Both the position numbers and the translations under genes were made by a program. Positions 30,887-59,427 of a stretch of DNA of 64,000 nt are shown in pieces. Positions within the stretch are counted from its first letter, which is position 1. Each line of letters starts with the position of its first letter. This DNA is from Candidatus Poribacteria bacterium (GTDB lineage Bacteria; Poribacteria; WGA-4E; UBA9662), in NCBI GenBank assembly GCA_036339735.1, contig JAYZAL010000047.1, forward strand, positions 32,001 through 96,000. The letters run 5' to 3'. A model generated the notes under the pieces. The model did not search any database. It had not been told where the DNA came from and worked only from the letters and a program-made list of their open reading frames with translations.

Positions 30887-31864
30887 ATGGAAAATCCAGT
30901 TGTTTACTTAGGTACAATCGGTCAAGGTATTTGGAAAAGTACCGACGGTGGTGACACATGGAATCGGCAAGCAAATGGATTGTTCGCAGAGGCTGATATT
31001 CGAGCGATAGCAGTCCGGCCGGATAATACAAATATCCTTTTCGCTGGTACCGAAAAAGGATTATATCGTTCCGATTCAGCCGGACAAAGTTGGTATCAAG
31101 TCGATTCTCCAATGAATGACCATCAAATATGGTCGATGGCTATTGATCCATCAAATCCCGATACCCTTTACGTTGGTACTTGTCCATCTGACTTGTTTAA
31201 GTCAGATGATAATGGAGAGAATTGGCACAAACTGAGTGTAGAGTTAGCTGATGAGTGTGCTGGAGGTGCTATCGTACCAAGGGTCACTACTATCAAGATT
31301 GATCCTGATGATGTAAACACTATTTATGCAGGAATTGAAATCGATGGTTTTCGACACAGCACAGATGGAGGCAAAACCTGGGCTACCATAAACGAAGGAT
31401 TGAGTAGTCTGGATATTCATGGCATTGCCGTCATTCCAGGTTCCCCAAAAACTCTGGTTGTGGCTACCAATAATGATGTCTGCATAACGCAAGATTTAAA
31501 AACCTGGCTTCCGTTATCCGTAAAAGACCACTATCCATGGCCTTATGCGCGCGCGGCGGACTACATCCAATCTTCGGTTAATGATGAAGGACGTCTGTTT
31601 ATAGGTGCAGGTAATGGACCTCCAGGGAACCAAGGTGGAATCTTCATTTCTTCTGATAATTGCAAATCATGGACTCGTGCTGACCTTGGACATACTGCCA
31701 ACAGTACTATCTGGAATTTCGCTTATAGAAAATCAGTACCAGGTTGGGTTATGGCTTACAGCATTAGCGGTCAACTTTTCCGTAGTACCGATAATGGAGA
31801 CAGTTGGGAAAAATTAGACCGAGAATTTGGTGAAGTGCGTGGGCTAGAAATAGTTCCAGCCTGA
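30887..31864 (+). CDS. BNR/Asp-box repeat beta-propeller (VPS10/YCF48-like)
   Basis: Repeated S.D.G.[TS]W: STDGGDTW, SDSAGQSW, SDDNGENW, STDGGKTW, STDNGDSW. Confidence 0.85.
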   Translation: MENPVVYLGTIGQGIWKSTDGGDTWNRQANGLFAEADIRAIAVRPDNTNILFAGTEKGLYRSDSAGQSWYQVDSPMNDHQIWSMAIDPSNPDTLYVGTCPSDLFKSDDNGENWHKLSVELADECAGGAIVPRVTTIKIDPDDVNTIYAGIEIDGFRHSTDGGKTWATINEGLSSLDIHGIAVIPGSPKTLVVATNNDVCITQDLKTWLPLSVKDHYPWPYARAADYIQSSVNDEGRLFIGAGNGPPGNQGGIFISSDNCKSWTRADLGHTANSTIWNFAYRKSVPGWVMAYSISGQLFRSTDNGDSWEKLDREFGEVRGLEIVPA

Positions 31865-32207: not shown

Positions 32208-33683
32208 ATGTCAAAGTCGGAAAGCCTGCCGAATATTCTTTTGATCTTAGCTGATGATCTAGGATATGGTGATGTCTCGTGTTACAACCCCGAGTCAAAA
32301 GTATCAACTCCAAATATTGATAAACTGGCCACCGATGGCGTGCGCTTTACTGATGCTCACAGTCCATCGACCGTTTGTACACCTAGTCGTTACAGCATAC
32401 TAACTGGGCGAATGGCTTTTCGTACGGGTTTTAGTGGGGTCTTCACTGGGGTTGGTGGCCCTTGCTTGATTGAAGATTCACGTTTAACCCTACCAGCGAT
32501 GTTAAAAACAAAAGGCTACAAAACAGCTCTGTTTGGAAAGTGGCACGTTGGCTTAAGTTTCCTTGATCGTGCAGGAGTACCGATCAATGAGAATGGATTC
32601 GAACCAGTACGAAGAATAGATTACAAACGTTCAATACCAGATGCTCCTATTCATCGTGGATTCGATCACTTCTTTGGTACTGCTTGCTGTCCAACCACTG
32701 ATTTCTTGTATGCCTTCATTGATGGAGATCGAGTTCCAGTGCCACCAGTAGCCTTATTAGATAAAGCCACTTTACCTAATCACCCTTATTCTCTGGATAA
32801 TCGAATTGGCTTCATTGCACCAGACTTTGACTTAGAAGAAGTAGATATGGTCTTTCTCGACAAAAGTAAGGCCTTTTTAGAAAACCATGCCCACGAAAGC
32901 CCAGATGATCCATTTTTTCTGTTTCATTCGACACAGGCCGTTCATCTACCTTCCTTTGCACAAAGAGGTTTTCAGGGGAAAACCAATGTGGGGCCACACG
33001 GTGACTTTATCTTTCAGTTTGACTATTTGGTTGGTGAATTACTGCACACGTTGCAAAAATTAGATATGGTTGAAAATACGCTAGTTATAGTGTGCAGCGA
33101 TAATGGACCAGAGGTTACTAGCGTAGTTAATATGCGTGCTGATTATCAGCATGATGGTGCAAAGCCTTGGCGAGGGATGAAACGCGATCAATGGGAGGGT
33201 GGGCACCGAATTCCATTTATTGTTCGTTGGCCATCACAAGTCCCAGCTGGTGTCACTAATGATCAAACTGTTTCCTTGTGCGATATTATGGCAACTTGTG
33301 CTGGTGTAGTTAATTTTCCGTTGCCGGATGATGCTGCCGAAGATAGCTTCAATATTTATCCAATCATAGGGAAACAAAAGGTATCTGTACCTACTCGAAC
33401 ATATACTTTACATCAGACTATTTCGCTGGCACTTTCCATTCGCAGGGATCAATGGAAATATCTTGACCACCAAGGTTCTGGGGGTAATGATTATGAATCT
33501 CCGGTACTCCAACCTTATGCTTTGAAAGAATATCAACCTACTGCTCCTGCACAGTTATACAATTTGGATGAAGATCCTGGAGAAACAACCAACCTTTACT
33601 TTGACTACCCGAAAATAGTAGAAGAATTAAAAATGCAATTAGATTGCGCCGTCAATTCTGGCCGAACCAGGCCTTACCAATGA
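32208..33683 (+). CDS. Arylsulfatase (Cys type)
   Basis: PNILLILADDLGYGD, CTPSRYSILTG, GKWH, SDNG, WEGGHRIP. Confidence 0.93.
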   Translation: MSKSESLPNILLILADDLGYGDVSCYNPESKVSTPNIDKLATDGVRFTDAHSPSTVCTPSRYSILTGRMAFRTGFSGVFTGVGGPCLIEDSRLTLPAMLKTKGYKTALFGKWHVGLSFLDRAGVPINENGFEPVRRIDYKRSIPDAPIHRGFDHFFGTACCPTTDFLYAFIDGDRVPVPPVALLDKATLPNHPYSLDNRIGFIAPDFDLEEVDMVFLDKSKAFLENHAHESPDDPFFLFHSTQAVHLPSFAQRGFQGKTNVGPHGDFIFQFDYLVGELLHTLQKLDMVENTLVIVCSDNGPEVTSVVNMRADYQHDGAKPWRGMKRDQWEGGHRIPFIVRWPSQVPAGVTNDQTVSLCDIMATCAGVVNFPLPDDAAEDSFNIYPIIGKQKVSVPTRTYTLHQTISLALSIRRDQWKYLDHQGSGGNDYESPVLQPYALKEYQPTAPAQLYNLDEDPGETTNLYFDYPKIVEELKMQLDCAVNSGRTRPYQ

Positions 33684-39895: not shown

Positions 39896-40585
39896 CTATC
39901 TTAATTCAAAGGTGGAAGGTAATATTGTATCCTCGTCGTAGATTAGTTGTGAACAGTTTGTGTTCACAAGGTTGGCTTTCTCGAGGTTTGCTCCCCTGAT
40001 ATCAGCGTTAGTTAGATTGGCTCCGTATAAATTGGCACCAGTTAGGGTTGATTTATATTTTTCATCATCACTATCGCTATCGCTATGGTGGCTAAAATTA
40101 GCTTTGGCCAAGTTAGCTGAAGTCAAATTAACACCTCTCAGATCAGCCTCCACTAAATCAGCATTCGACAAATCAGCCAGGGTTAGATCCGATCGTTCTA
40201 ATTTTGCCTGACGCAAGTTAGCTTTTGTTAGTTGTGCTTCTCTCAAATCTGAACCACTCAAGTTTACCCAACATAAATTAGTTGCATTTAGACGAGCGTA
40301 GCGGAGATCTGCCCCATTGAGACTGGCACCATATAAGTCAGCACCATCAAGATTTGCTCCAGTTAGGTTCGCGCCTTCCAGGTTTGCACGACTTAGGTCT
40401 GCATTGGTTAGATCAGCACCGGCCAGATTAGACCATCTAAGATCGCTATATGCCAAGTGGGCATCAGTTAAATTTGCACTTTCAAGATTGGTCCAGCTTA
40501 GATCACATCGACTCATATCGGCTCCAGTCAAATTAGATGCTACTCCGAGCTCGTACTTTCTTCCATTTTTCTCGACAATTTTCAT
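39896..40585 (-). CDS. Pentapeptide repeat protein
   Basis: Long run of A[DN]LxX pentapeptides; alternative TTG start at 40600. Confidence 0.92.
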   Translation of the reverse strand: MKIVEKNGRKYELGVASNLTGADMSRCDLSWTNLESANLTDAHLAYSDLRWSNLAGADLTNADLSRANLEGANLTGANLDGADLYGASLNGADLRYARLNATNLCWVNLSGSDLREAQLTKANLRQAKLERSDLTLADLSNADLVEADLRGVNLTSANLAKANFSHHSDSDSDDEKYKSTLTGANLYGANLTNADIRGANLEKANLVNTNCSQLIYDEDTILPSTFELR

Positions 40586-40671
40586 GTTTTTTGTTTCCAA
40601 TCCGTCACACTAGTTCTTAGTTAAGATATTGAAATCTTTATTGTCTTTTGTTGATCCTGTATTATTTGAAG

Positions 40672-42753
40672 TTAATTTTTGGTTTCTAATTTCTTGACTA
40701 ATTGATCAATTTGCCGGAACTGCCAACTCCAGCGCACGTTGTATAAGAATTGTCTCAAATCGAAACGATTATCCTCTGGTGAATACAGCTCAGCGTGATA
40801 GGATGGCGTCATAGTCGTCATCTTATGACGGTTAACTGAGTAGTAAAAAAAGAATCGTTTGACTTTTTCTGCAACTATGGCGGGGGATAGGTGCTCCCAT
40901 TCGTAAACTAGTTTCTCGAACATTCTCACAGGCCCACATCGGTGAACTTTACGTAAGATTCCAAATTTACCGAGTTCATCGTATGTCATTCCCATATCGA
41001 TTTCGTCTTTCTGATTATAATTCTCAGTAATCGGTTCAAGTTCTGCTGTTGGGGGAGCATTAACTACGTCAATCAAAGCTGGATATCCCAAGTGGTTCGC
41101 GGCCCAACGAAGAAATTGTCGAAGGTCCCTCTTACTAATACCACCGATTGGATTAATATCAGCGCTACTACAATCGTATTTGGTAACATATCCGCGCAAA
41201 CTTTCATCTACGTTTGCACTACCGAGAACAAGTAGTCCTCCTTTATAACCTCTAACCCAAGGCAATAATTGAGCCAATAGATATGCTAAAACCATGCGGG
41301 TCCGCGCCTGAATATTTTGTAACGCCAGATTTTCGGATAGTGATCCGCCGTTAACTTTAAATTGAGGCTGTTTGCCAGTCAAACGTACAAACAACGACAA
41401 AAAAGCATTAACAATTCCATCAATGTTAGCATTTAGATGAAAGTTGCCAATTTGTTCAGAAATGGCTTGAGCCCGGTCTTTTGTATCTTTTGAGCTATTC
41501 TCCGAAGCCATGTAACAGGTGTGCAAAATTCGATTAGCCAATTTATGTGCTGAACTTGGCATATAAGTCTCGTCTGCCAACACTTTACGGATATCAGCTA
41601 ATGTCTGTTGATTGCCTCTACTAATAGACTCTACAACCAGTTGACACATTGAACCAACTAACGCAATTGTGGATGAGCTATCAGCACCACCAGAAATCGG
41701 AACGAAGTAACCACTACTACCTGAGCGACGTAGATAATCCCAAAGCCAACAGGCTGGGCCATATGCTATTTCTTCTTCTGGTTGATGGTAAAAAACCGTA
41801 ATAGGTTTTGTCGGTGCTACAAACTGGGATGTTGTTAAATCAAAATCGATCGAAATTCTCTGAATATTGTCAACTTGTGTCGCTTGCGCCGATCGACTCG
41901 AAATTGATCGGCGAAATGAACAGACCTCTTGTAAGTCAACTGTAGCAGTTATGACTTCCACATCGTCAAGAGAAAACTGAGAGCCTTGTGCCACTATTTC
42001 ACCATTGATTGCAATCAAGGCGCAACCATCAAAATAGAGCCGGCTGCCGTCACAACCCTGTTGGTTGGCATATAGATAAACACCACCACCTTTCGCTGTT
42101 GCTCCTCGAATCAGATCAATACGTTCATTAAGTTTACGCAACTGATGATGCGAACCCGATCCATTAGTGATAATTTCAATACCATCCAACCCAAAACCGA
42201 TGTGTGGACTCTTCGGTGTAAAGAGCTCTTCACAGGTTTCTGATGCAACAGTAGTATCCCTAGTAGCGATAGCTGCAATTCCAATGGGTGCAGTGTGCTG
42301 TTGGTTCAGGTCACGGATCGTTTCTGGCAGGGAAAAAGGTTCAATACTTCGTTCTTGACTCCAGGCTGAGAACCAACGTGTTTCCCTATAATTTCCATCA
42401 TTAGCCAAAAAGATTTTGGGCCGAATCATCAAGATTTGCTGATTCAGAACTAATACACGACAATTGTAACTAACATTTTTGTGTGAGATAGGCATCCCAA
42501 TATCACACAAAATTCCCTCGGTTGCATCGCTGGATAATATCTCAGCCATCACTTCCCAAGCATGCAAAAAGGTGTCTTCTTCTAAAAACGCATCTTCACA
42601 ACTATAACCAGTAACTTCTAACTCTGGTCCAAGGCGATAAGTCGCATCTTGCTCTTTGGCAATTTGAATGGACTGAAGAATTCGATCTAAATTACCGTCA
42701 AAATCTAAAGACCACTGGTTCAGATTACAAGTAGCGAGGGTTGCTAGTCTCAT
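40672..42753 (-). CDS. nadE: Glutamine-dependent NAD+ synthetase (eukaryote-like NADSYN1/Qns1 type)
   Basis: Nitrilase domain (GPELE, RPK, ETCEELF) fused to a synthetase domain ([52 protein letters not shown]). Confidence 0.93.
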
Positions 42754-42805
42754 AGCAAGATATTTTAAGATAGAGAACTATATTATTTGCAAAAAAACTA
42801 AATAT

Positions 42806-42847
42806 AAAAAGGGCGGGACGACAAGGTTGCCCTCATCGTATCCCGCC
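42806..42847 (-). terminator. Rho-independent terminator after the TPR lipoprotein gene
   Basis: GGCGGGA-UA-CGAUGAGG-GCAA-CCUUGUCG-UCCCGCC, then C and U5. Confidence 0.75.
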
Positions 42848-42889: not shown

Positions 42890-44254
42890 TTACTTTTCTG
42901 GTTTGCTATTGCTATCTTGATCTGAAGTTCCAGCTTCCTGTTCTTGATAAAACATGAAACCATCTTCGTCTTGGTCAAGGTCAAATTGACGTACTAACTG
43001 TTGAGCTTCTCTGTAATATTTCAATTCGTCTGGATTATCTAAACTCATATATGCTTTGAACATTTCTCGGGCTTTAGCAAACTCACGAATACTTCGATAA
43101 CAAACGGCTTGCTGATAAACAGCTTCGTTTCGCCAAGTTGACTGAGGTGCTTCTGTAAATAGATTGTCATAGCCCTCTATTGCTTTTGTATATTCACCGT
43201 CTAGCTGGTGAAGACGACCTATTTGATATAGAGCATCAGCCTGAGCGAATTTATTACCAGTTAAATTTTCCGATAGTTCTCGATAAGCAAAAGTAGCATT
43301 AGGGTAATTTCTCATTTTGATCCAGCCAGCAGCGATGTTCTGGTAATCTTGAACGACTCGATCCCTTTGACCCATCTGGTATAAGTCTGCGGAAGTTACC
43401 AAGCGACCAGCTCTTCTCATGGCCATGGCCTTGGAATTAGTGTACTTAGATACATCATCTTGGTCTTGCTGAATCATAGTCAAAGTTTGGCGTGATCTTT
43501 TGAGTAATGTTTCAGCTTCACCAGCTTCGTAAGTACCGTTGTAGTCTTCTGCAACTTTCACAAAAGCACCCCAACCACCTGCATTGGTGTAATCATAAAG
43601 CTGGTAAAAATACAAATTGCCAACTTTAAATAGAGAACGAGGGGCAAGATCATGTTCCGGAAATTCATCGACTAGCTTTTCATAATTTGCAATAGCTTCT
43701 TCAAAATCACCTAGCCCAACATATGCTTCCGCTACTTTATACAGAGCTTGTACTGCGGCTTCCTGGCTTTCAGGTGTTTCGACTAAGCTGCGGTTTCTAT
43801 AAATTCGAAGTTGTTCCTGCACTTCTTGCCGATTACGCCGAATTGACGAAATATTACCTGCAGCTTGACTCCCTAAATAGCCAGTAGGAGCGATATCTAC
43901 CACCGACTGATAATGGATGATAGCATCATCTAGCTTCTTTCTATTTTTATGAATTTCAGCGATTTCGTAGTGGGCTCGTTGTTTGTAATTCATAACAGCC
44001 TTGCTAGTTTTGGTTGCTTGAGTAACCTCTAGGTATCCACCAACGGCTTCGTCGTATAGTTTGTTCTTTCGATCTTTTAGTTCATCTGCTCGTTTTTTAT
44101 CACTTGCAATTAAATCTTTATTGATTTGGATCAGTTCTGCCAGTTCAACTTTTCGATCGGCATTGCTAATTTTAACACTAAGTGGAACACATCCAATCAG
44201 CGATGTCATCACAATAAGCACAATCGGAAATAGCCAAACCATTAACTTTTTCAT
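42890..44254 (-). CDS. TPR lipoprotein (BamD/CpoB-like) with C-terminal Ca-binding repeat
   Basis: Lipobox LIGC after MKKLMVW; TPRs; terminal DLDQDEDG...EQEAGTS (thrombospondin type-3-like). Confidence 0.8.
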   Translation of the reverse strand: MKKLMVWLFPIVLIVMTSLIGCVPLSVKISNADRKVELAELIQINKDLIASDKKRADELKDRKNKLYDEAVGGYLEVTQATKTSKAVMNYKQRAHYEIAEIHKNRKKLDDAIIHYQSVVDIAPTGYLGSQAAGNISSIRRNRQEVQEQLRIYRNRSLVETPESQEAAVQALYKVAEAYVGLGDFEEAIANYEKLVDEFPEHDLAPRSLFKVGNLYFYQLYDYTNAGGWGAFVKVAEDYNGTYEAGEAETLLKRSRQTLTMIQQDQDDVSKYTNSKAMAMRRAGRLVTSADLYQMGQRDRVVQDYQNIAAGWIKMRNYPNATFAYRELSENLTGNKFAQADALYQIGRLHQLDGEYTKAIEGYDNLFTEAPQSTWRNEAVYQQAVCYRSIREFAKAREMFKAYMSLDNPDELKYYREAQQLVRQFDLDQDEDGFMFYQEQEAGTSDQDSNSKPEK

Positions 44255-48095: not shown

Positions 48096-51000
48096 TTACT
48101 GTATTTTTCGCAAAAGCTCTTGGTACATTTTAGTTGCATATTGATGTAACTGATTCCAGTCCTTTTTTTGATTAGTATTGACTGATGAAATGTAATTTTT
48201 GTACAGGCTGATTGCATCTTCGTAGCTATCCTTAGCTAGGAGCTCTTTTTTAGCTTTTACGTAAGCGTCTGCTGCTCGAACTGCCGCATGCAGAGCTGTT
48301 AGTGGACTGTGCTGCTCCCTGAGATGACGGACCCGGAGATAAGTAGAGCCAGCTTCATAATATTGACCATTTAAGCTCAGGGTTTCCGCCAATCGTAATT
48401 CAGCATCAATGACAATCTCAACAGGATATTGATCACTTCCACCATCACGAATTTTTGCATAAGCCGAAATTGCTTGCGTATACTGTTTTTGGGCTCGATA
48501 GACATGACCCAAAAGGAGTTGGGTCATTTTGGCTTGTTCTGAACTAGCATACTTATCGAGAATCGTTCGATAAATCTCAGCAGCTTCCCCCCACCTTAAT
48601 AACTCTTGATTGCAATTTCCAGCAAGTAACAACGCTTGTGGTGCATCATTACTACTCGGGTATTCCCTCGCTACTGACAAAAAAGCTGCAATTGCCTTTT
48701 CGAGATTTCTCCCAGGATTGTTTTTGTTATACCAAACATAGCCAGCTTCATAACGAGACGTGGCGGCTAGTTCACTTTTTTTCGAGACCTTCTCAAAAGC
48801 GGCTATTGCTTGTTTGAACGATCCGATTTCTAGATAAGATTTACCTATGTGATATCGTGCTAAAGATGAGGATTCTGAGCGACCGTATTGATCGATGACT
48901 TTTTGGAATTCAGATATAGCCCTACTATAATTTTTTTGGATAAAGTAGAAACGGCCAATGTGAATCTGAACATCAGGTGCTAGAGGGCTATCCGGGTAGT
49001 TCTTAATAAGATAATTGTAGGCTTGGAGTGCTTGTTCACTTTTCCCTTGGTCCTCGTGGGCTGTAGCGATACCATATTGCGCATCATCAGCCCACAGACT
49101 TTTCGGATAGTGTTCAATGACTTTTTGATATCCTTGAATTGCTTTTTGATAATTTTTCAAATTGATATAGCTCTCAGCAACGTAATACTGAGCTTCAGGT
49201 CTCAGATCAAAAGTCTTTTCTGCTCCAGGTCGACCTGTCTGTAACTTCAGATTTGGAAAATTTTCGATAACTCTTCGGTACTCAGTAATAGCACTTGCAT
49301 ATTTCCCCAATTTAAAATAGGCATTCGCAATACCAAAAATGGCCTTTGGCTCTAGCTGCGAAGCAGGAAAAGATCGTAATTGCTCTTGAAAAGCCATTAT
49401 CGCATCGTTGTAACGTTCCAATTTGTAGAAGGACCAGCCAATCTGGTATTGAGCATCATCCCGCCAATTGCTAGTCTGATACGTTTGTAATAGTTCAGAA
49501 AAAGTATTTATTGCTTTTTGGTAACGCCTCAAATTGCTTTGTGCTACGCCTTGGTGATATTGTGCTTGGTCAGAATAACTACCAGACGGATGTTTTTTTA
49601 TCATTTCTTGCCAACTTATTACTGCTTGGCCATATAATCTATCCTGTTCATTCCCATCAGATAATACTGCCTCTGAGAAATAAGTCCAGCCGACACCAAA
49701 TCGGTATTTTTCAGCCCATTCCTCATCGGATTCTTTGTCTAACAAATCTTGATATTTTTGTCTGGCTGATTGGTACGCAGATTTGGATTCTTCTTGCCAA
49801 TAAGTACTTTCAGCAATAAAAAAGTCGGCTTGCTGACGAAACTGGCTTTCTGGATACCTTTGGATCAAAGTATTACAAACTATGATAACTTCGTTGTAGT
49901 TCTCGGCTTCGAATAAAGCTCTAGCCTTCCAGTACAAAGCTTCGTCGGCACTAGTAGTTGATAATTTACGGTCATCTAAGGTAATGAAATAATTATCAAA
50001 AGCCGATGCACTTTCAGAATATTGTCGCAGATTGAAGTAGGACAATCCAAGATGGTACAGAGCATAAGGTTTTAGGTCAGTGTTAGGCGTCAATTTCAGA
50101 AGGCTTTCGATCACCGAAACAGCACTCTGATAGTCTCTTAGCTCAAAGTAACTAATAGCAATCTGATATTGGGCGTCATCAGCATAAGGTGAGTCTTCCC
50201 GCACTTTTTGATAATTAAGGATCGCAGAATTAAATTCTCTGGATAACCGGAAACACTCACCCATTCTAAATCGAGCAGCGTCACTCAATTCTGAGTTAAG
50301 ATCATCCGCCACTAGTTTGAAAGCGGTTTTAGCCTCTGTATAGTCCTGCGTATTAGTACCGAGATTGAAATAGACCATCGCTATCCCGTATTGAGCATTA
50401 TCAGCTACTGTACTATCTGGATATAAGCGAATGACTTTTTGGTATTCGTAAATCGCCTCGTTTACCTTATCTTCTTCGGCGAGAATCTCACCAATCCAGT
50501 ATTGTGCTTCTGCCGACAAGGACGACTTTTCACTTTCATCTAACAAGTATGTGAATGTATCTCTGGCTTCAGTCATCATCTTTTGTTGAAAATAACATTC
50601 ACCTAATCGAAAGCGTGCGTCAGTGATGTATTGTCTTAGCAAATTTTGGTCTTGATGACTATGGTTTTGGTACCTATCAATAAATTGTTGAAATTCAATT
50701 TGAGCTTCCTGCCACTCATACATTTGGAATAAGGATTCCGCAGCTCGGTAAGTAGCCTCAATTGTAGCAGAGTGATCTGGGTATTGATCGACAAAGAGCA
50801 GTAACTGATCGTGAGCTTTCTGGAATTTTTTCAACCTATAATCAACCCATGCAATTGAATATAAAGCATCTGCGGACTGTTTCGTCTGTGGGTAATCTGT
50901 TAGAATTTGATCATAATACTCACGAGATTTTTGATACAATCCTAACTTTTCGTAAGACTCCCCTATTAGGTAAATTGACTCCGAAATGACCTCTGGTGAG

Positions 51001-51428
51001 TAAGAATTAATGTCCTCAGTTGCAGCTTCCCAAAACTCTTGAAACCCCTTGATTGATTCAGTATATTTGCCCTGACGAAACCAAGCAATTGCTATACCTC
51101 GAACGGCATCTAAGCGTAAGGAGCTATTTGGGTGTTCTGCTGTCAAGCGCTTGAAGTTTTGAATGGCTATACCGTATTGTTCTAAATTAAGCGCTGATTC
51201 ACCAACTAACAGGCGGGCATCGTCAACATTTTTACTTTCAGGATATTTCTGGATAAAGATCTCGAATTGGTCCTTGGCAACGGCATACGCTTTTTTTTCG
51301 TATAATTTATAGGCAAATGTATAATCTTCACGCTCACCGGCATTTGCCGTAATGGTACAAAACAGGCATAAGAGTACAAAGAAATGAGGTAGGAATCTTG
51401 AGATCGATTGCTTATCGTAAGACTTCAT
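48096..51428 (-). CDS. Large secreted TPR protein (about 25 BamD/CpoB-type repeats)
   Basis: Signal peptide ending TANA; repeated 'YP.S..ADDAQY.IA' units; alternative start at 51446. Confidence 0.9.
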   Translation of the reverse strand: MKSYDKQSISRFLPHFFVLLCLFCTITANAGEREDYTFAYKLYEKKAYAVAKDQFEIFIQKYPESKNVDDARLLVGESALNLEQYGIAIQNFKRLTAEHPNSSLRLDAVRGIAIAWFRQGKYTESIKGFQEFWEAATEDINSYSPEVISESIYLIGESYEKLGLYQKSREYYDQILTDYPQTKQSADALYSIAWVDYRLKKFQKAHDQLLLFVDQYPDHSATIEATYRAAESLFQMYEWQEAQIEFQQFIDRYQNHSHQDQNLLRQYITDARFRLGECYFQQKMMTEARDTFTYLLDESEKSSLSAEAQYWIGEILAEEDKVNEAIYEYQKVIRLYPDSTVADNAQYGIAMVYFNLGTNTQDYTEAKTAFKLVADDLNSELSDAARFRMGECFRLSREFNSAILNYQKVREDSPYADDAQYQIAISYFELRDYQSAVSVIESLLKLTPNTDLKPYALYHLGLSYFNLRQYSESASAFDNYFITLDDRKLSTTSADEALYWKARALFEAENYNEVIIVCNTLIQRYPESQFRQQADFFIAESTYWQEESKSAYQSARQKYQDLLDKESDEEWAEKYRFGVGWTYFSEAVLSDGNEQDRLYGQAVISWQEMIKKHPSGSYSDQAQYHQGVAQSNLRRYQKAINTFSELLQTYQTSNWRDDAQYQIGWSFYKLERYNDAIMAFQEQLRSFPASQLEPKAIFGIANAYFKLGKYASAITEYRRVIENFPNLKLQTGRPGAEKTFDLRPEAQYYVAESYINLKNYQKAIQGYQKVIEHYPKSLWADDAQYGIATAHEDQGKSEQALQAYNYLIKNYPDSPLAPDVQIHIGRFYFIQKNYSRAISEFQKVIDQYGRSESSSLARYHIGKSYLEIGSFKQAIAAFEKVSKKSELAATSRYEAGYVWYNKNNPGRNLEKAIAAFLSVAREYPSSNDAPQALLLAGNCNQELLRWGEAAEIYRTILDKYASSEQAKMTQLLLGHVYRAQKQYTQAISAYAKIRDGGSDQYPVEIVIDAELRLAETLSLNGQYYEAGSTYLRVRHLREQHSPLTALHAAVRAADAYVKAKKELLAKDSYEDAISLYKNYISSVNTNQKKDWNQLHQYATKMYQELLRKIQ

Positions 51429-51519
51429 TTTGAAATATCCGATCACGCTGTTGTTGGTGGGGCTTATGGCTGTAAAAGCAGGAGGCCATTTTGATCGAAA
51501 ATCCGCCGGTCAATTTTCA

Positions 51520-56271: not shown

Positions 56272-59200
56272 TTATTTCAAAATAACAAATCGGCGTTGGG
56301 ACGAAAAAACATCCGATTGGGCATCTTGGCTATTGGTTTCCGCGAAGAAGTGGTAGAAATAGACTCCACTGGAAACTAACTCTCCAGTATCGTTTGTACC
56401 ATCCCATTTTAGAGATCGAGACTGATCTGTGTAGTATCCTGCTTTTTTGTAACCAAGATTAAAAATCCGAATAGTTTCCCCTTTCTGATTATAAATTTCA
56501 ATTTTGACCGTAGCAGCTTGAGATAATTGGTAGGGAATCCAAGTCTCAGGGTTGAATGGGTTAGGATAGTTGGGCAAGAGTTTGCTAACAGAAGGTATCA
56601 AAGAATTTTCTGATCGACTGACCATTTGTTCTAATGCGAATAGTAGTTCAGGGTTACCATCTATTTCCCTGAGTTTTTGGTAAATTTCATTATATATTAG
56701 TCTGTCATTCTCGTTGGTCATTGGACCCAATTTGTCGATTGATTCTGATTCAGTCGGAGCTTTCCTTATGCGCGTATTTCGCCAATTCTGGCTGATCGGG
56801 ACAATATCATCTTGGTTAATGATCCCATCTCCGTTGGCATCCGCATAAGTAGCAACTTTATCTTTCCAGGCTACAGCAGGTTGAAGTTTCCAGCTATTAT
56901 CGCCTTTGTCACGCACTGGCCCAATACTTCCCCAGAATTGGCCTAGTGGTAACACATCGAAAACATCAACCTGACCGTCTCGATTCGTATCCCCTGGCCA
57001 AACGATCAAACCCGTACGAAATACGATGTCACTGGCTTCAACGTATTTGCCACTCATGTCCTCAATTACACTGCTGACACTAATCGTAATCTCTTCTTCT
57101 GAGCGAAAAATTGACTGAGGGTCAAATAAAATCAAGTTGGATCCCTCAATTTTGAACTGAGTCTGTTGAGAGGAGTAAGTTTTACTGGACTCATCTGCTA
57201 ACTTCCCACGGACCTGAATGCTAAATGGTGTAATAGTCTCTTCCCGTAATTGAGCGAAAGTTGGCATTCGTATCCGAATTTTAGTAGTGACTTCAACGTT
57301 GTCCAGTCGGTTTGGCTCAACTAATCGCCAAATTTCACCCTGTTGTTGGACACTTGCAACTTCCTGTTGAATATTCCAGAACAAAATTGTTCCGTCGAGT
57401 GAACTTGACGCCAAAATGTTGGTGCCATCATTCCGCTCAGTAAAGGTCAGCCCCGTCACTTTATCAGTATGACCACGGAATAATTTCGGTCCCTTTTGTA
57501 AACTTGAGTAATTCCATACCCAAACAGCATCACCAATTCCTGCGGCAAAGAAGCGACCATCTTTCGACAAACATACCGCACGAACTTTTCCTGAAGATAT
57601 ATTACGATCTACGTTGAACTGTCCATTGCGACCGACTTTCCCTCCAGCCAAAACTTCCCAAGTTTGAACCGACCCGTTTTCTAATCCTACAACAAACCTA
57701 TTGTCGCCTTTTACTCTACTAAAACTTACAGCTGTTAAAGACCCACCGGCCGGTACAGTTACAATTTCTTGTAACCCATCTTTATCTGACAAGCTAAAGA
57801 GTGCAATCTGTCCATTTGAAGTAACCACAATCATCAGTGTTCCATCATAGTTGAAATCGACATCCTGAGCAGAAACATTGACAAACATGTCATCATTACC
57901 AAAAGGACTTCCTCCTTTCCGACGAACTCTCAGGCTACCGTCGGTGGCTACTGACGCTACCCAATCCCTCTGTGCAGAAAATCGAACTGAGTTAAGAATC
58001 GATAGAGGTGGATGGCTATTACCAAACTGCCCATTGATGTTTTTAGGAGGATCCGTGGATAAGTCAGTAACTTCGACTTGATTTGTTTTTGTAGCAACGG
58101 CCAAATCTAAACCTGACGGCGCATAATCAAGGCTAACAATTGGGCTGGGAGAGGTCAGTGTCACAACTGGTAACAAGTCTTTTTGATTCCAAATTATGAT
58201 TTCTTGTGACTGATATGCAGCAACAATTCTGCCATTTGGCTGGTTTGGAAAGCTAACATCAATCACTTGAGAATAAAAGTCATTAAAAGGTAGAACCGTT
58301 CGAGCAGGTACTTCCACCACACCAATCTCAAAGTGTACCAGAGATTCGCCAAAGGGGTTGTTTTCAGCACCGACAATGAGTTCCGTATCATATGGGTGGA
58401 ATGCTAATGATATACCGGTGGATGCAAAATCTCTCTTCAAAATTTGAGGAGGTTTTGGGGTCGCATCCGATGTGTAAAGTTCCCAAATCCGCAAGGTTTT
58501 ATCCGTTGCATAAGCAATAAGATTCTTATTGCCCATGTAGAAAGCTAAATCGTAAAGTTTTTCAGCCCCCAGCTGTTGCCAAAATTGTGGCTTAGGATTT
58601 TTAACTTCTTGGATGTAAATGTCAGAAGTATTGTTGCTGAGGTTATATGTACCGACAAAAAGGAACTTTCCGTCGTAATTATAAGCGATTTTTTGTATTT
58701 CGGTCTGACGCCCGTAGACGCCCTTTTGAATTCCGCGGAAGACTGATTCGTTGACACCTTTACGCCATAAGTGGAGCTCTCGTGTCGTTGCTACTGCTAA
58801 CATCTGATCATAACCAGTTGGCGCAGGATCGAATAGAAGATCTTTAACACTCCCTTCTAAACTCAGAACTTGGGCTTGTGAAAAAGTTGGAAGATTGTTT
58901 CCGGCTTCCTGAACTCTTACTTCAATCGAATAGATATACACGAGACTCGATGCAAGATTTTCATCTTGTCGGTTTTCCGTTAATGCAACCACTAACCAAT
59001 TTCCATCTCCACTTACTGTAACGGAATCAACTGTCTTTCCTTGAACCAAGGCTGGCGTTTCGATAATCAATCGTGGATCGACCAGATCGACAAATTTTAA
59101 TCCTTCATCAGTTGCTAGAGCGATCAGTTGGTTGGAAATGAATGCCAGATCGTTAATGTAACCATCTTGCCGGTAGAATCCAATCTGTCGATTGTTTTCG

Positions 59201-59427
59201 GTATCGATCAAACGCAATCCGATAGTGGTTGCTACGGCAAGTCGTTTGCCATTAGGCGAATAAGCGGCCTGACGAATAGTTCCATAGCCAATTCGACCGA
59301 TTGATCCAGTCGGCAAATAGCTATTAGCATCAGCCAAGCAAACCCACACAAACAAAAACGCGAAAAAACTAAGAAGTTGCGCGATAAAACGACTGAATGG
59401 ACTTAAATTCACTGGAATTAATTTCAC
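56272..59427 (-). CDS. Secreted WD40 beta-propeller + Ig-like + dockerin + FlgD-like C-terminal domain protein
   Basis: WD40 (AYSPNGKRLAV, GHTDKV...LASSSLDGTILFW); twin EF-hand loops GDTNRDGQVDVFD and ADANGDGIINQDD; LLPNYPNPFNPETWIPYQL...WDGTND.GE.VSSGVYFY. Confidence 0.85.
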   Translation of the reverse strand: MKLIPVNLSPFSRFIAQLLSFFAFLFVWVCLADANSYLPTGSIGRIGYGTIRQAAYSPNGKRLAVATTIGLRLIDTENNRQIGFYRQDGYINDLAFISNQLIALATDEGLKFVDLVDPRLIIETPALVQGKTVDSVTVSGDGNWLVVALTENRQDENLASSLVYIYSIEVRVQEAGNNLPTFSQAQVLSLEGSVKDLLFDPAPTGYDQMLAVATTRELHLWRKGVNESVFRGIQKGVYGRQTEIQKIAYNYDGKFLFVGTYNLSNNTSDIYIQEVKNPKPQFWQQLGAEKLYDLAFYMGNKNLIAYATDKTLRIWELYTSDATPKPPQILKRDFASTGISLAFHPYDTELIVGAENNPFGESLVHFEIGVVEVPARTVLPFNDFYSQVIDVSFPNQPNGRIVAAYQSQEIIIWNQKDLLPVVTLTSPSPIVSLDYAPSGLDLAVATKTNQVEVTDLSTDPPKNINGQFGNSHPPLSILNSVRFSAQRDWVASVATDGSLRVRRKGGSPFGNDDMFVNVSAQDVDFNYDGTLMIVVTSNGQIALFSLSDKDGLQEIVTVPAGGSLTAVSFSRVKGDNRFVVGLENGSVQTWEVLAGGKVGRNGQFNVDRNISSGKVRAVCLSKDGRFFAAGIGDAVWVWNYSSLQKGPKLFRGHTDKVTGLTFTERNDGTNILASSSLDGTILFWNIQQEVASVQQQGEIWRLVEPNRLDNVEVTTKIRIRMPTFAQLREETITPFSIQVRGKLADESSKTYSSQQTQFKIEGSNLILFDPQSIFRSEEEITISVSSVIEDMSGKYVEASDIVFRTGLIVWPGDTNRDGQVDVFDVLPLGQFWGSIGPVRDKGDNSWKLQPAVAWKDKVATYADANGDGIINQDDIVPISQNWRNTRIRKAPTESESIDKLGPMTNENDRLIYNEIYQKLREIDGNPELLFALEQMVSRSENSLIPSVSKLLPNYPNPFNPETWIPYQLSQAATVKIEIYNQKGETIRIFNLGYKKAGYYTDQSRSLKWDGTNDTGELVSSGVYFYHFFAETNSQDAQSDVFSSQRRFVILK

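Follow-up and report, generated by a model that had tools for sequence, protein, structure and literature searches.

Gene and domain organization of nadE

The window analysed here is a stretch of 64,000 nucleotides from a 140,778-bp contig of a Candidatus Poribacteria genome. On its minus strand, the open reading frame list and the translation gave one complete gene at 40672..42753, exactly where the initial annotation had placed it. This gene, referred to below as nadE, starts with ATG, contains no internal stops, and encodes a protein of 693 aa (the span includes the stop codon); it was typed as a eukaryote-type (NADSYN1/Qns1-like) glutamine-dependent NAD+ synthetase. The stretches quoted in that annotation were all present in the translation, namely a 15-residue stretch at residues 7–21 and YRLGPELE at residues 39–46 in the N-terminal part, and two longer segments at residues 511–541 and 641–671.

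Two domains were recognized in the protein. The first is an N-terminal glutaminase domain (nitrilase-like, CN_hydrolase) at residues 6–281 (41911..42738, minus strand; Pfam PF00795, E 2.7e-38), and the second is an NAD synthetase domain (ATP pyrophosphatase, NAD_synthase) at residues 336–596 (40966..41748, minus strand; Pfam PF02540, E 2.8e-27), within which the P-loop SGGADS was read in the translation at residues 354–359. A C-terminal region (residues 597–693) follows. The glutaminase domain possesses the catalytic residues E44, K113, and C174 together with the second glutamate E124, and it also carries the eukaryote-type residues Tyr122 and His202. Based on the alignment with the human structure 6ofb and the residue numbering given in the available part of PMC6946656, these six residues correspond to Glu45, Lys114, Cys175, Glu125, Tyr123, and His203 of the human enzyme, respectively.

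Given these domains and residues, the gene product probably functions as a glutamine-dependent NAD+ synthetase of the kind known from eukaryotes (NADSYN1/Qns1). Glutamine would be hydrolysed in the nitrilase-like N-terminal domain by the Cys174-Glu44-Lys113 triad, and the ammonia released would pass to the C-terminal ATP-pyrophosphatase domain with its P-loop at residues 354–359, which would adenylate nicotinic acid adenine dinucleotide and then amidate it to NAD+. The substrate nicotinic acid adenine dinucleotide would be supplied by an ordinary bacterial NadD, and a NadD was found in the genome (186.6 bits, with the cut-off at 112.45). The enzyme itself is ordinary; its ancestry is unusual.

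Genomic context and integrity of the locus

The nadE gene had been described as intronless and surrounded by bacterial genes, and this description holds: it is a single open reading frame, and its flanking genes belong to ordinary Pfam families (pentapeptide repeat, glycosyltransferases, TPR, and ExbB). The GC content of nadE is 0.420 and its GC3 is 0.346, compared with means of 0.417 and 0.351 for the open reading frames of the window. A check for a chimeric contig had been proposed, and it showed that other assemblies have the locus in synteny. The flanks are collinear on both sides in two of them (L016 and L015), and the upstream flank is collinear in three (L017, L006, and L007). Moreover, both nadE junctions are bridged by contigs of the runs X4 (records 18 and 23) and X6 (records 24 and 28), which come from two other studies. 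The same type of gene was also found in single-contig genomes of 4–7 Mb from the same order. The stretch was held by 20 runs, all labelled as marine or seawater metagenomes save one without a label, and none labelled as sponge.

A hairpin (GGCGGGA ... TCCCGCC) with a T-run behind it was read directly from the sequence at 42801..42846 on the minus strand, in the 136-nt spacer that separates the start of nadE from the TPR gene upstream of it, whose stop lies at 42890. This hairpin is probably the terminator of the TPR gene, in which case nadE would be its own transcription unit. Contigs of two metatranscriptome runs (two studies) end at 42819–42836 and DNA contigs continue across, which is a weak hint in support of a terminator. 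A consensus scan for promoters and terminators returned sites no more numerous than in shuffled sequences, and the hairpin at 42801..42846 was absent from its list. Contigs of two metatranscriptome runs also lie over parts of nadE; contigs from RNA libraries are no proof of transcription.

The NAD synthetase complement of the genome

The genome is about 92% complete, with an estimated contamination of 2.41%. A profile search with PF02540 returned four matches in it, namely nadE, GuaA, LarE, and a 20.7-bit match beside LarE. The second nadE suggested as a check by the initial annotation was thus not found by the profile search of this genome, although at about 92% completeness the missing DNA might hold one. 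The eukaryote-type gene is the only NAD synthetase found in this Candidatus Poribacteria genome, from which it follows that the ordinary bacterial NadE would have been replaced here, while other classes of the phylum keep it. However, a search for the eukaryote-type protein gave a single match in 88 of the 93 relatives, and in the other five the matches were two pieces of one open frame.

Comparison with eukaryotic and ordinary bacterial enzymes

The initial annotation had likened the protein to human NADSYN1 and to yeast Qns1, the latter being a eukaryotic glutamine-dependent NAD+ synthetase. This likeness is real and no chance match of motifs: residues 2–690 aligned with residues 4–696 of human NADSYN1 (6ofb_A, 707 aa) in one stretch with 932.7 bits (E 1.2e-279), an alignment that reaches into the C-terminal region as far as residue 690. 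Among solved bacterial enzymes, the best scores were 219.7 bits for Cytophaga (3ilv) and 66.5 bits for M. tuberculosis (3dla). The alignment score of the protein to 6ofb is that of a 58%-identical representative, and the clusters nearest to it in the Atlas are composed of 91–100% Eukaryota. Identity to the named eukaryotes ranges from 41 to 62% (61.8% for the red alga Galdieria, 53.0% for an insect, and 45.0% for a trematode), compared with 22–30% to ordinary bacterial NadE proteins from the phylum and from plasmids.

The difference from typical bacterial NadE that had been noted was also evident from the family models. The protein scored below the cut-offs of both NCBIfam full-length NadE equivalogs, with 132.9 bits against 473 for NF002730 (PRK02628) and 119.4 bits against 479 for NF010588 (PRK13981), and the generic nadE domain model TIGR00552 was the sole NCBIfam nadE model that it passed (89.8 against 63.65). 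When 72,556 plasmid records were searched by tblastn for possible carriage of the gene, 150 had a NadE match, but only ordinary NadE was found, the best among the matches listed being that of Spirosoma with 30.2% identity; plasmid carriage was rejected.

The protein and human NADSYN1 (hsNadE, PDB 6OFB) are alike in length class (693 and 707 aa), in their two domains, in the C-E-K triad and second Glu, in the P-loop and the C-terminal region, and in the Tyr/His residues of the constriction. The gating Trp179 of the human enzyme is replaced by Phe178 here, and Phe occupies this position in 16 of the 41 eukaryote-like rows of our alignment and in 14/14 bacterial eukaryote-type rows. Unlike its eukaryotic counterparts, the gene is intronless, lies on a bacterial chromosome among bacterial neighbours, and has a bacterial-type NadD upstream of it in the pathway. 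The ordinary fused NadE enzymes (tbNadE, 3DLA; Cytophaga hutchinsonii, 3ILV; NF002730 and NF010588) share with it the reaction, the domain order, and the catalytic residues, but differ in having Phe/Pro at the constriction-1 positions, in the low bit scores of tbNadE and the Cytophaga enzyme, and in lying across a branch of 3.0–3.5 changes per site.

The constriction residues deserve particular mention. According to the available text of PMC6946656, Tyr123 and His203 are conserved in eukaryotic NAD synthetases, and Phe and Pro stand in their place in prokaryotes. In our alignment, Tyr/His occupied the two constriction-1 positions in all 14 bacterial eukaryote-type rows, and Phe/Pro occupied them in 4/4 rows of ordinary NadE from the same phylum; among the eukaryote-like rows (n = 41), Tyr was present in 31 and His in 32. 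The catalytic residues E44, K113, C174, E124, and E175 were likewise intact in every one of the 14 bacterial rows, and so was the P-loop SGGADS.

Distribution among bacteria

Full-length matches with 61–72% identity were detected in all 93 of the 93 further genomes sampled from the order, a good many of which consist of a single contig, and are spread over four families. Elsewhere in the phylum the eukaryote-type NadE was found in 0/7 genomes; these seven carry ordinary NadE, either fused (four genomes, 544–581 aa, 22–25% identity), as split subunits (two genomes), or in a 421-aa form (one genome).

A eukaryote-type NadE is also present in metagenome-assembled genomes (MAGs) of Anaerolineae, a class of Chloroflexota and thus of a phylum other than Poribacteria. 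These copies include P0357 ("NAD(+) synthase [Chloroflexi bacterium]") and P0436 ("Candidatus Promineifilaceae"), and NCBI labels the Chloroflexota copies plainly as "NAD(+) synthase". At least 11 Chloroflexota-named sequences occur among the matches listed, with 73–100% identity to P0357, and P0357 in turn shares 65.8% identity with the Poribacteria protein; the full-length identities of P0389 and P0357 to the latter are 64.5–65.8%. The Chloroflexota copies have the same signature residues and fall in the same clade as the Poribacteria sequences in every tree. Taken together, it is fairly probable that the gene has been vertically inherited throughout one Poribacteria order and has its closest relatives in Anaerolineae-class Chloroflexota.

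The initial annotation had also considered that this subtype might prove widespread and already described in bacteria. The first part stands to the extent that the type is fixed in one Poribacteria order and occurs in Anaerolineae MAGs; as to the second, our literature search found no published description of a bacterial eukaryote-type NadE.

Phylogenetic analysis

The main tree was computed with LG+C20 PMSF from 59 rows; its UFBoot run was not fully settled (correlation 0.979). Most representatives among the rows are without an organism name, and the six to which an organism could be assigned are all eukaryotes. In every tree, the protein was placed with the eukaryotic sequences, on their side of a long branch to ordinary NadE that measured 3.0–3.5 changes per site in two trees. 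The main tree recovered a bacterial clade (99/98), within which the Poribacteria sequences (99/95) and, as their sister subclade, the Chloroflexota sequences together with two unnamed rows (93/86) were separated. This bacterial clade was found inside a group of 29 rows (85/93) that also holds red algae and a lupin sequence, and the opisthokonts, a ciliate, and an apicomplexan were found outside it, the opisthokonts as a separate group (92/93). In the second tree, the bacterial clade instead stood beside an opisthokont-containing group (SH-aLRT 90). The position of the bacterial clade within the eukaryotic radiation is therefore unstable and shifts with sampling.

In both unconstrained maximum-likelihood trees the bacteria were nested among eukaryotes. 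When the bacteria were forced to be sister to monophyletic eukaryote-like rows, the cost was 8.2 lnL in the main data set (p-AU 0.291) and 4.7 lnL in the second (p-AU 0.285; iqtree2 on the same alignment, two trees, PMSF site frequencies), so that a sister placement to all eukaryotes was not rejected by the AU tests. The constrained tree had a eukaryotic stem of only 0.061 changes per site, against about 3.05 on the stem that leads to ordinary NadE. The outgroup branch is very long and, in the main tree, joins the ingroup at its longest row, so that a rooting artefact could account for the nesting.

Insertions and gaps in the alignment were also inspected. The red algae have private insertions that are missing from the bacteria (for example, one column with 7/7 red rows and 0/14 bacterial rows), so that the bacterial genes do not originate among the red algae sampled. 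A one-residue gap at query position 577 is the only gap that the bacteria share with red algae, and it is uninformative because the outgroup has the same gap.

A giant virus was considered as a vector and rejected. Eight loci from giant-virus bins (IMG/VR, scan with alignment A1) have open reading frames for a NAD synthetase of the eukaryote type, and these fell in four separate places of a FastTree tree, three of them beside the representatives P0247, P0162, and P0152, and none adjoined the bacterial clade; a viral vector is thus unsupported.

Origin of the bacterial gene

The sharing of a eukaryote-type version by a bacterial order and some Chloroflexota points to an old exchange of genes between eukaryotes and bacteria, and since Poribacteria and Chloroflexota are unrelated phyla, transfers are required under any reading. 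Both origins proposed at the outset, a transfer from a eukaryote and a lineage of bacteria that is sister to the eukaryotic enzyme, are compatible with our data, given that the trees nest the bacteria and the AU tests keep the sister position. We favour an ancient eukaryote-to-bacterium transfer, which we regard as reasonably probable. The gene would have passed once from a eukaryote to a bacterium, an early transfer between the two bacterial phyla would have followed, and the native nadE would then have been lost. The donor would have branched close to the root of the crown radiation.

The other origin, in which the clade of Poribacteria and Chloroflexota does not descend from eukaryotes, is the less likely one, with a modest probability. 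It takes two forms, a bacterial donor to the eukaryotic ancestor or a branch off the eukaryotic stem just before the crown, and the changes along the long branch that leads to ordinary NadE would in that case have accumulated within bacteria. The AU results agree with it, as do the short branches of the bacterial clade and its want of a stable eukaryotic partner, and the gap at position 577 could be an ancestral state. Furthermore, the available part of De Ingeniis et al. 2012 (PMC3376133) derives eukaryotic branch II from bacterial branch I. However, the type is limited to one order of Poribacteria and is otherwise seen only in Chloroflexota-named MAGs of an unrelated phylum, but is carried by every eukaryotic group seen; there is no bacterial grade around the eukaryotes, whose stem is very short compared with that to ordinary NadE; and both unconstrained trees put the bacteria among eukaryotes. 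That this clade is the surviving bacterial lineage that donated the NAD synthetase to the last common ancestor of eukaryotes or to the stem before it is a little less likely again.

Poribacteria are known as sponge symbionts, and a recent capture from a sponge or another animal host might be suspected from the fact that the human enzyme is the top-scoring solved structure and that the second tree sets the bacterial clade beside an animal and fungal group. We consider such a capture very improbable. The bacterial clade never fell within animals in our trees, which contain no sponge sequences, and the opisthokonts formed their separate group in the main tree; the insect and trematode proteins are less identical to the query than that of Galdieria. 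In addition, the gene is fixed across four families and has the composition of its host, which indicates that it is old, the same clade occurs in Chloroflexota, and no run holding the stretch was labelled as sponge. A chimeric assembly or a bin contaminated with eukaryotic DNA, which might a priori be suspected when a MAG with some estimated contamination contains a protein that shares about 60% identity with the human enzyme, can be practically dismissed in view of the intronless frame on a long contig with matching GC and GC3, the same flanks in independent assemblies, the bridged junctions, and the single-contig genomes of the order.

Significance of the eukaryote-type NadE

Under the bacterial alternative, the finding would bear on the source of the eukaryotic enzyme, and if the donor form of it were true, these bacteria would represent the donor of a housekeeping enzyme that is universal in eukaryotes, with the Tyr/His constriction and the C-terminal region as bacterial inventions. 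Under any origin, the rule that separates eukaryotic from prokaryotic enzymes by Tyr/His and Phe/Pro, as worded in the available part of PMC6946656, fails in these bacteria, which is relevant where NadE is a selective drug target. The intronless bacterial orthologues of NADSYN1 are also usable for expression and structural work. Under the favoured transfer from a eukaryote, a presumably essential single-copy housekeeping enzyme would have been exchanged between the two domains and then retained over the whole history of a bacterial order, and, unlike the accessory "eukaryote-like" repeat proteins, it would provide a clean and datable case of interdomain gene replacement.

A eukaryote-type NAD synthetase gene in Poribacteria

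The window nadE (40672..42753, minus strand) is a single ATG-started ORF encoding a protein of 693 aa, and the three protein stretches quoted in the initial annotation were all found in its translation. Pfam domains for carbon-nitrogen hydrolase and NAD synthase lie at residues 6-281 and 336-596, respectively. When all Protein Data Bank chains were searched, the top match was human NADSYN1 (6ofb_A, 932.7 bits, E 1.2e-279), with residues 2-690 of the window protein and 4-696 of the 707 human residues joined in a single alignment. The best-scoring bacterial structures were 3ilv, described as the Cytophaga hutchinsonii enzyme (PMC3376133), with 219.7 bits, and 3dla, the M. tuberculosis enzyme, with 66.5 bits. 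On the two NCBI full-length bacterial NadE models the protein scored 132.9 and 119.4 bits, far below their respective cut-offs of 473 and 479, and the generic nadE domain model was the sole NCBI NadE model passed. The window protein thus agrees with the NADSYN1/Qns1 type in all its sequence-level criteria and falls under the curated thresholds for ordinary bacterial NadE, which confirms the proposal of a eukaryote-type NAD synthetase in a bacterium.

Authenticity and surroundings of the locus

The window belongs to a 140,778-bp contig of a 4.32 Mb genome (107 contigs, 92% complete, 2.4% estimated contamination). The GC and GC3 of nadE are 0.420 and 0.346, compared with means of 0.417 and 0.351 over 53 window ORFs. 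Pfam families were found in 18 of the 25 neighbouring ORFs scanned, and the flanks are bacterial as first described, with a flanking pentapeptide-repeat protein, two glycosyltransferases, TPR proteins and an ExbB-type channel nearby. The flanks are collinear on both sides in two other assemblies, at loci L016 (nadE 94% identical) and L015 (84%), and the upstream flank is collinear in three further assemblies (L017, L006 and L007). Both nadE junctions are bridged by contigs from sequencing runs of two further studies (X4, records 18 and 23; X6, records 24 and 28). Within the limits of these data, the host-like composition, the bacterial neighbours, the synteny and the bridging contigs exclude chimerism and eukaryotic contamination; the synteny comparison suggested in the initial annotation gave no sign of a chimera. 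Among the 120 close matches listed, 7 were named “Candidatus Poribacteria bacterium” and none carried the name of another bacterial phylum; the same name was on two of the three loci found in a genome-contig search.

The window neighbourhood contains many repeat and eukaryote-like domain proteins. A 1116-aa TPR protein (48096-51446) and a 1051-aa WD40 beta-propeller protein with a FlgD-Ig domain (56272-59427) are encoded on the minus strand, and a Sortilin/BNR protein (30887-31864) and a sulfatase (32208-33683) on the plus strand.

In the spacer upstream of nadE lies a GC-rich hairpin followed by a T-run (42801-42846, minus strand). Contigs from two metatranscriptome runs, each of a different study, end within this spacer (42819-42836), and in those runs the depth over the upstream TPR gene is three- to four-fold higher. 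The hairpin and the contig breaks give a weak hint that nadE may be transcribed on its own. Loose contig ends were also observed at 40067, within the pentapeptide-repeat gene (39896-40600), in DNA run X4 and RNA run X16; they consist of ATCACT/ATCGCT-type hexamer repeats that coincide with the protein's Ser-Asp repeat stretch. This repeat is probably length-variable and breaks assemblies.

Distribution within the phylum

The window protein was used to search 101 genomes of the phylum. A full-length match of 61-72% identity was present in all 93 other genomes of the order (four families), many of them a single contig, and a second NadE-like match was found in none of these 93. In five of them (G057, G058, G060, G071 and G080, from two genera) the match comes in two pieces of a single 719-779 aa open frame, with additional sequence at the linker between the two domains, at about query residues 307-316. 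Seven genomes of other orders or classes gave only weak matches (best E 2.8e-12). At these seven loci ordinary NadE was found as four fused proteins (544-581 aa, 22-25% identity), two adjacent glutaminase/synthetase pairs and one 421-aa form. The pairs, L032 (1745-3456) and L033 (1139-2844), come from two genomes of another class and encode first a glutaminase and then a synthetase subunit, 283-285 aa each, matching the “clustered” type as described by De Ingeniis et al. 2012 (PMC3376133). With the two-gene and fused 544-581 aa forms beside the eukaryote-type enzyme, the phylum holds three NadE architectures.

Identity to the window protein declines with family kinship, from the same family (highest) to the largest family, f4 (lowest). 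This kinship order and the single Poribacteria clade in the tree are both consistent with a single acquisition at the root of the order and vertical inheritance since then.

Predicted function and diagnostic residues

The glutaminase triad is present as Glu44, Lys113 and Cys174, which correspond to Glu45, Lys114 and Cys175 of the human enzyme by the 6ofb alignment and the numbering given in Chuenchor et al. 2020 (PMC6946656), together with the second glutamate Glu124, Glu175 and a P-loop, SGGADS, at residues 354-359. The host genome has four PF02540 matches (window nadE, GMP synthase, LarE and a 20.7-bit match adjoining LarE) and a bacterial NadD (186.6 bits, cut-off 112.45). Judging from the catalytic residues, this inventory in a 92%-complete genome and the presence of NadD, the window nadE most likely encodes the cell's only NAD synthetase, which would amidate NaAD supplied by NadD; the search for a second nadE proposed earlier found none.

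Tyr123 and His203 are reported as conserved in eukaryotes, with Phe and Pro in prokaryotes (Chuenchor et al. 2020, PMC6946656). At the equivalent positions, all 14 bacterial eukaryote-type rows have Tyr and His, and all four ordinary NadE rows of the same phylum have Phe and Pro. The bacterial eukaryote-type enzymes are therefore an exception to the eukaryote/prokaryote residue rule as stated there.

Relatives in Chloroflexota and eukaryotes

When 1.84 billion cluster representatives were scanned in full with HMMER, 915 clusters reached an E-value of 1e-30 or lower. Organism names were available on 6 of the 20 representatives looked up, all eukaryotes (red alga, insect, ascomycete, ciliate, trematode and apicomplexan), and the best three named Atlas clusters are 91-100% Eukaryota. 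Identity to the window protein is 61.8% for Galdieria, 57.0% for Chondrus, 53.0% for Lygus, 48.7% for Blepharisma, 46.7% for Durotheca and 41.3% for Eimeria. The red-alga protein P0147, used as query, retrieved bacterial proteins named Chloroflexi and Anaerolineales. With one of these, P0357 (65.8% identical to the window protein), as query, at least 11 Chloroflexota-named proteins, 73-100% identical to it, were among the matches listed (Chloroflexi/Chloroflexota bacterium, Anaerolineales, Anaerolinea sp., Anaerolineae and Candidatus Promineifilaceae), so the eukaryote-type NadE is not unique to Poribacteria.

The 1201-aa Lupinus angustifolius protein P0042 aligns twice to the window protein (residues 1-642 and 686-1164) and results either from tandem duplication or from a gene model that merges two genes. 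Eukaryote-type two-domain NAD synthetases were also seen in eight giant-virus MAG contigs (L041-L048, IMG/VR bins), each as one uninterrupted ORF of 681-1114 aa, 35-54% identical to the window protein. They take four separate FastTree positions, three adjoining representatives P0247, P0162 and P0152, and may belong to the viruses themselves or stem from eukaryotic DNA binned with them.

Phylogeny and origin of the gene

Tree 1 (IQ-TREE, LG+C20+F+G4 by PMSF, 59 rows, 697 columns) was rooted with ordinary NadE of the phylum. It recovered a bacterial eukaryote-type clade (99/98, all UFBoot values being from a run short of full convergence), with Poribacteria inside it (99/95) and Chloroflexota grouped with two unnamed rows (93/86). 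This clade falls within an unresolved group of 29 rows (85/93) with red algae (97/99), a lupin sequence and unnamed representatives; the group excludes opisthokonts (92/93), ciliates, Eimeria and other rows. For tree 2 (44 rows), ten long unnamed rows and five others (four bacterial, one unnamed red-algal relative) were removed, and three nearer outgroups, the plasmid-borne nadE genes of Spirosoma, Hymenobacter and Vibrio (28-30% identical), took the place of two of the four distant ones. The bacterial clade was again found (SH-aLRT 96), now adjoining the animal and fungal group (SH-aLRT 90). Since its neighbours differ between the trees, its place inside the eukaryotic radiation is unstable. 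The outgroup branch of tree 1 is 3.5 changes per site and the ingroup stem of tree 2 is 3.05; in both trees the window protein lies on the eukaryotic side of this long branch.

That annotation left two readings, transfer from a eukaryote or a bacterial sister lineage. We favour transfer and think it rather probable, because all eukaryotes seen have this type, which in bacteria is limited to one order of one phylum and part of another, unrelated phylum, because no bacterial grade surrounds the eukaryotes, and because the bacteria are nested in both unconstrained trees. That the bacteria are instead a sister or donor lineage of the eukaryotic enzyme is possible but fairly doubtful. It would agree with the conclusion in De Ingeniis et al. 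2012 (PMC3376133) that the eukaryotic branch arose from a bacterial one, and when all eukaryote-like rows were constrained to one clade, making the bacteria their sister, the cost was 8.2 lnL (p-AU 0.291) in data set 1 and 4.7 lnL (p-AU 0.285) in data set 2, so this position was rejected in neither AU test. The eukaryotic stem in the constrained tree is only 0.061 changes per site, and the indels examined did not decide between transfer and sister. The gene is unlikely to have been captured recently from a sponge host, given that the bacterial clade never falls inside animals (in trees without sponge rows), is old, host-like in composition and shared with Chloroflexota, and that of the 20 runs containing this stretch 19 carry a marine or seawater metagenome label and one carries none. 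Whether by transfer or as a sister, the bacterial clade split off at about the time when the crown eukaryotes radiated; by then the type had already undergone nearly all of its divergence from ordinary NadE.

These proteins already bear the generic database name “NAD(+) synthase”. A full-text literature search found no paper on NAD synthetase in Poribacteria, NADSYN1 transfer to bacteria or the eukaryotic type in Chloroflexi, the only related work among the papers listed being a general study of the NAD synthetase family. The enzyme kind itself is known; what makes this member interesting is its ancestry and its exception to the published residue rule.
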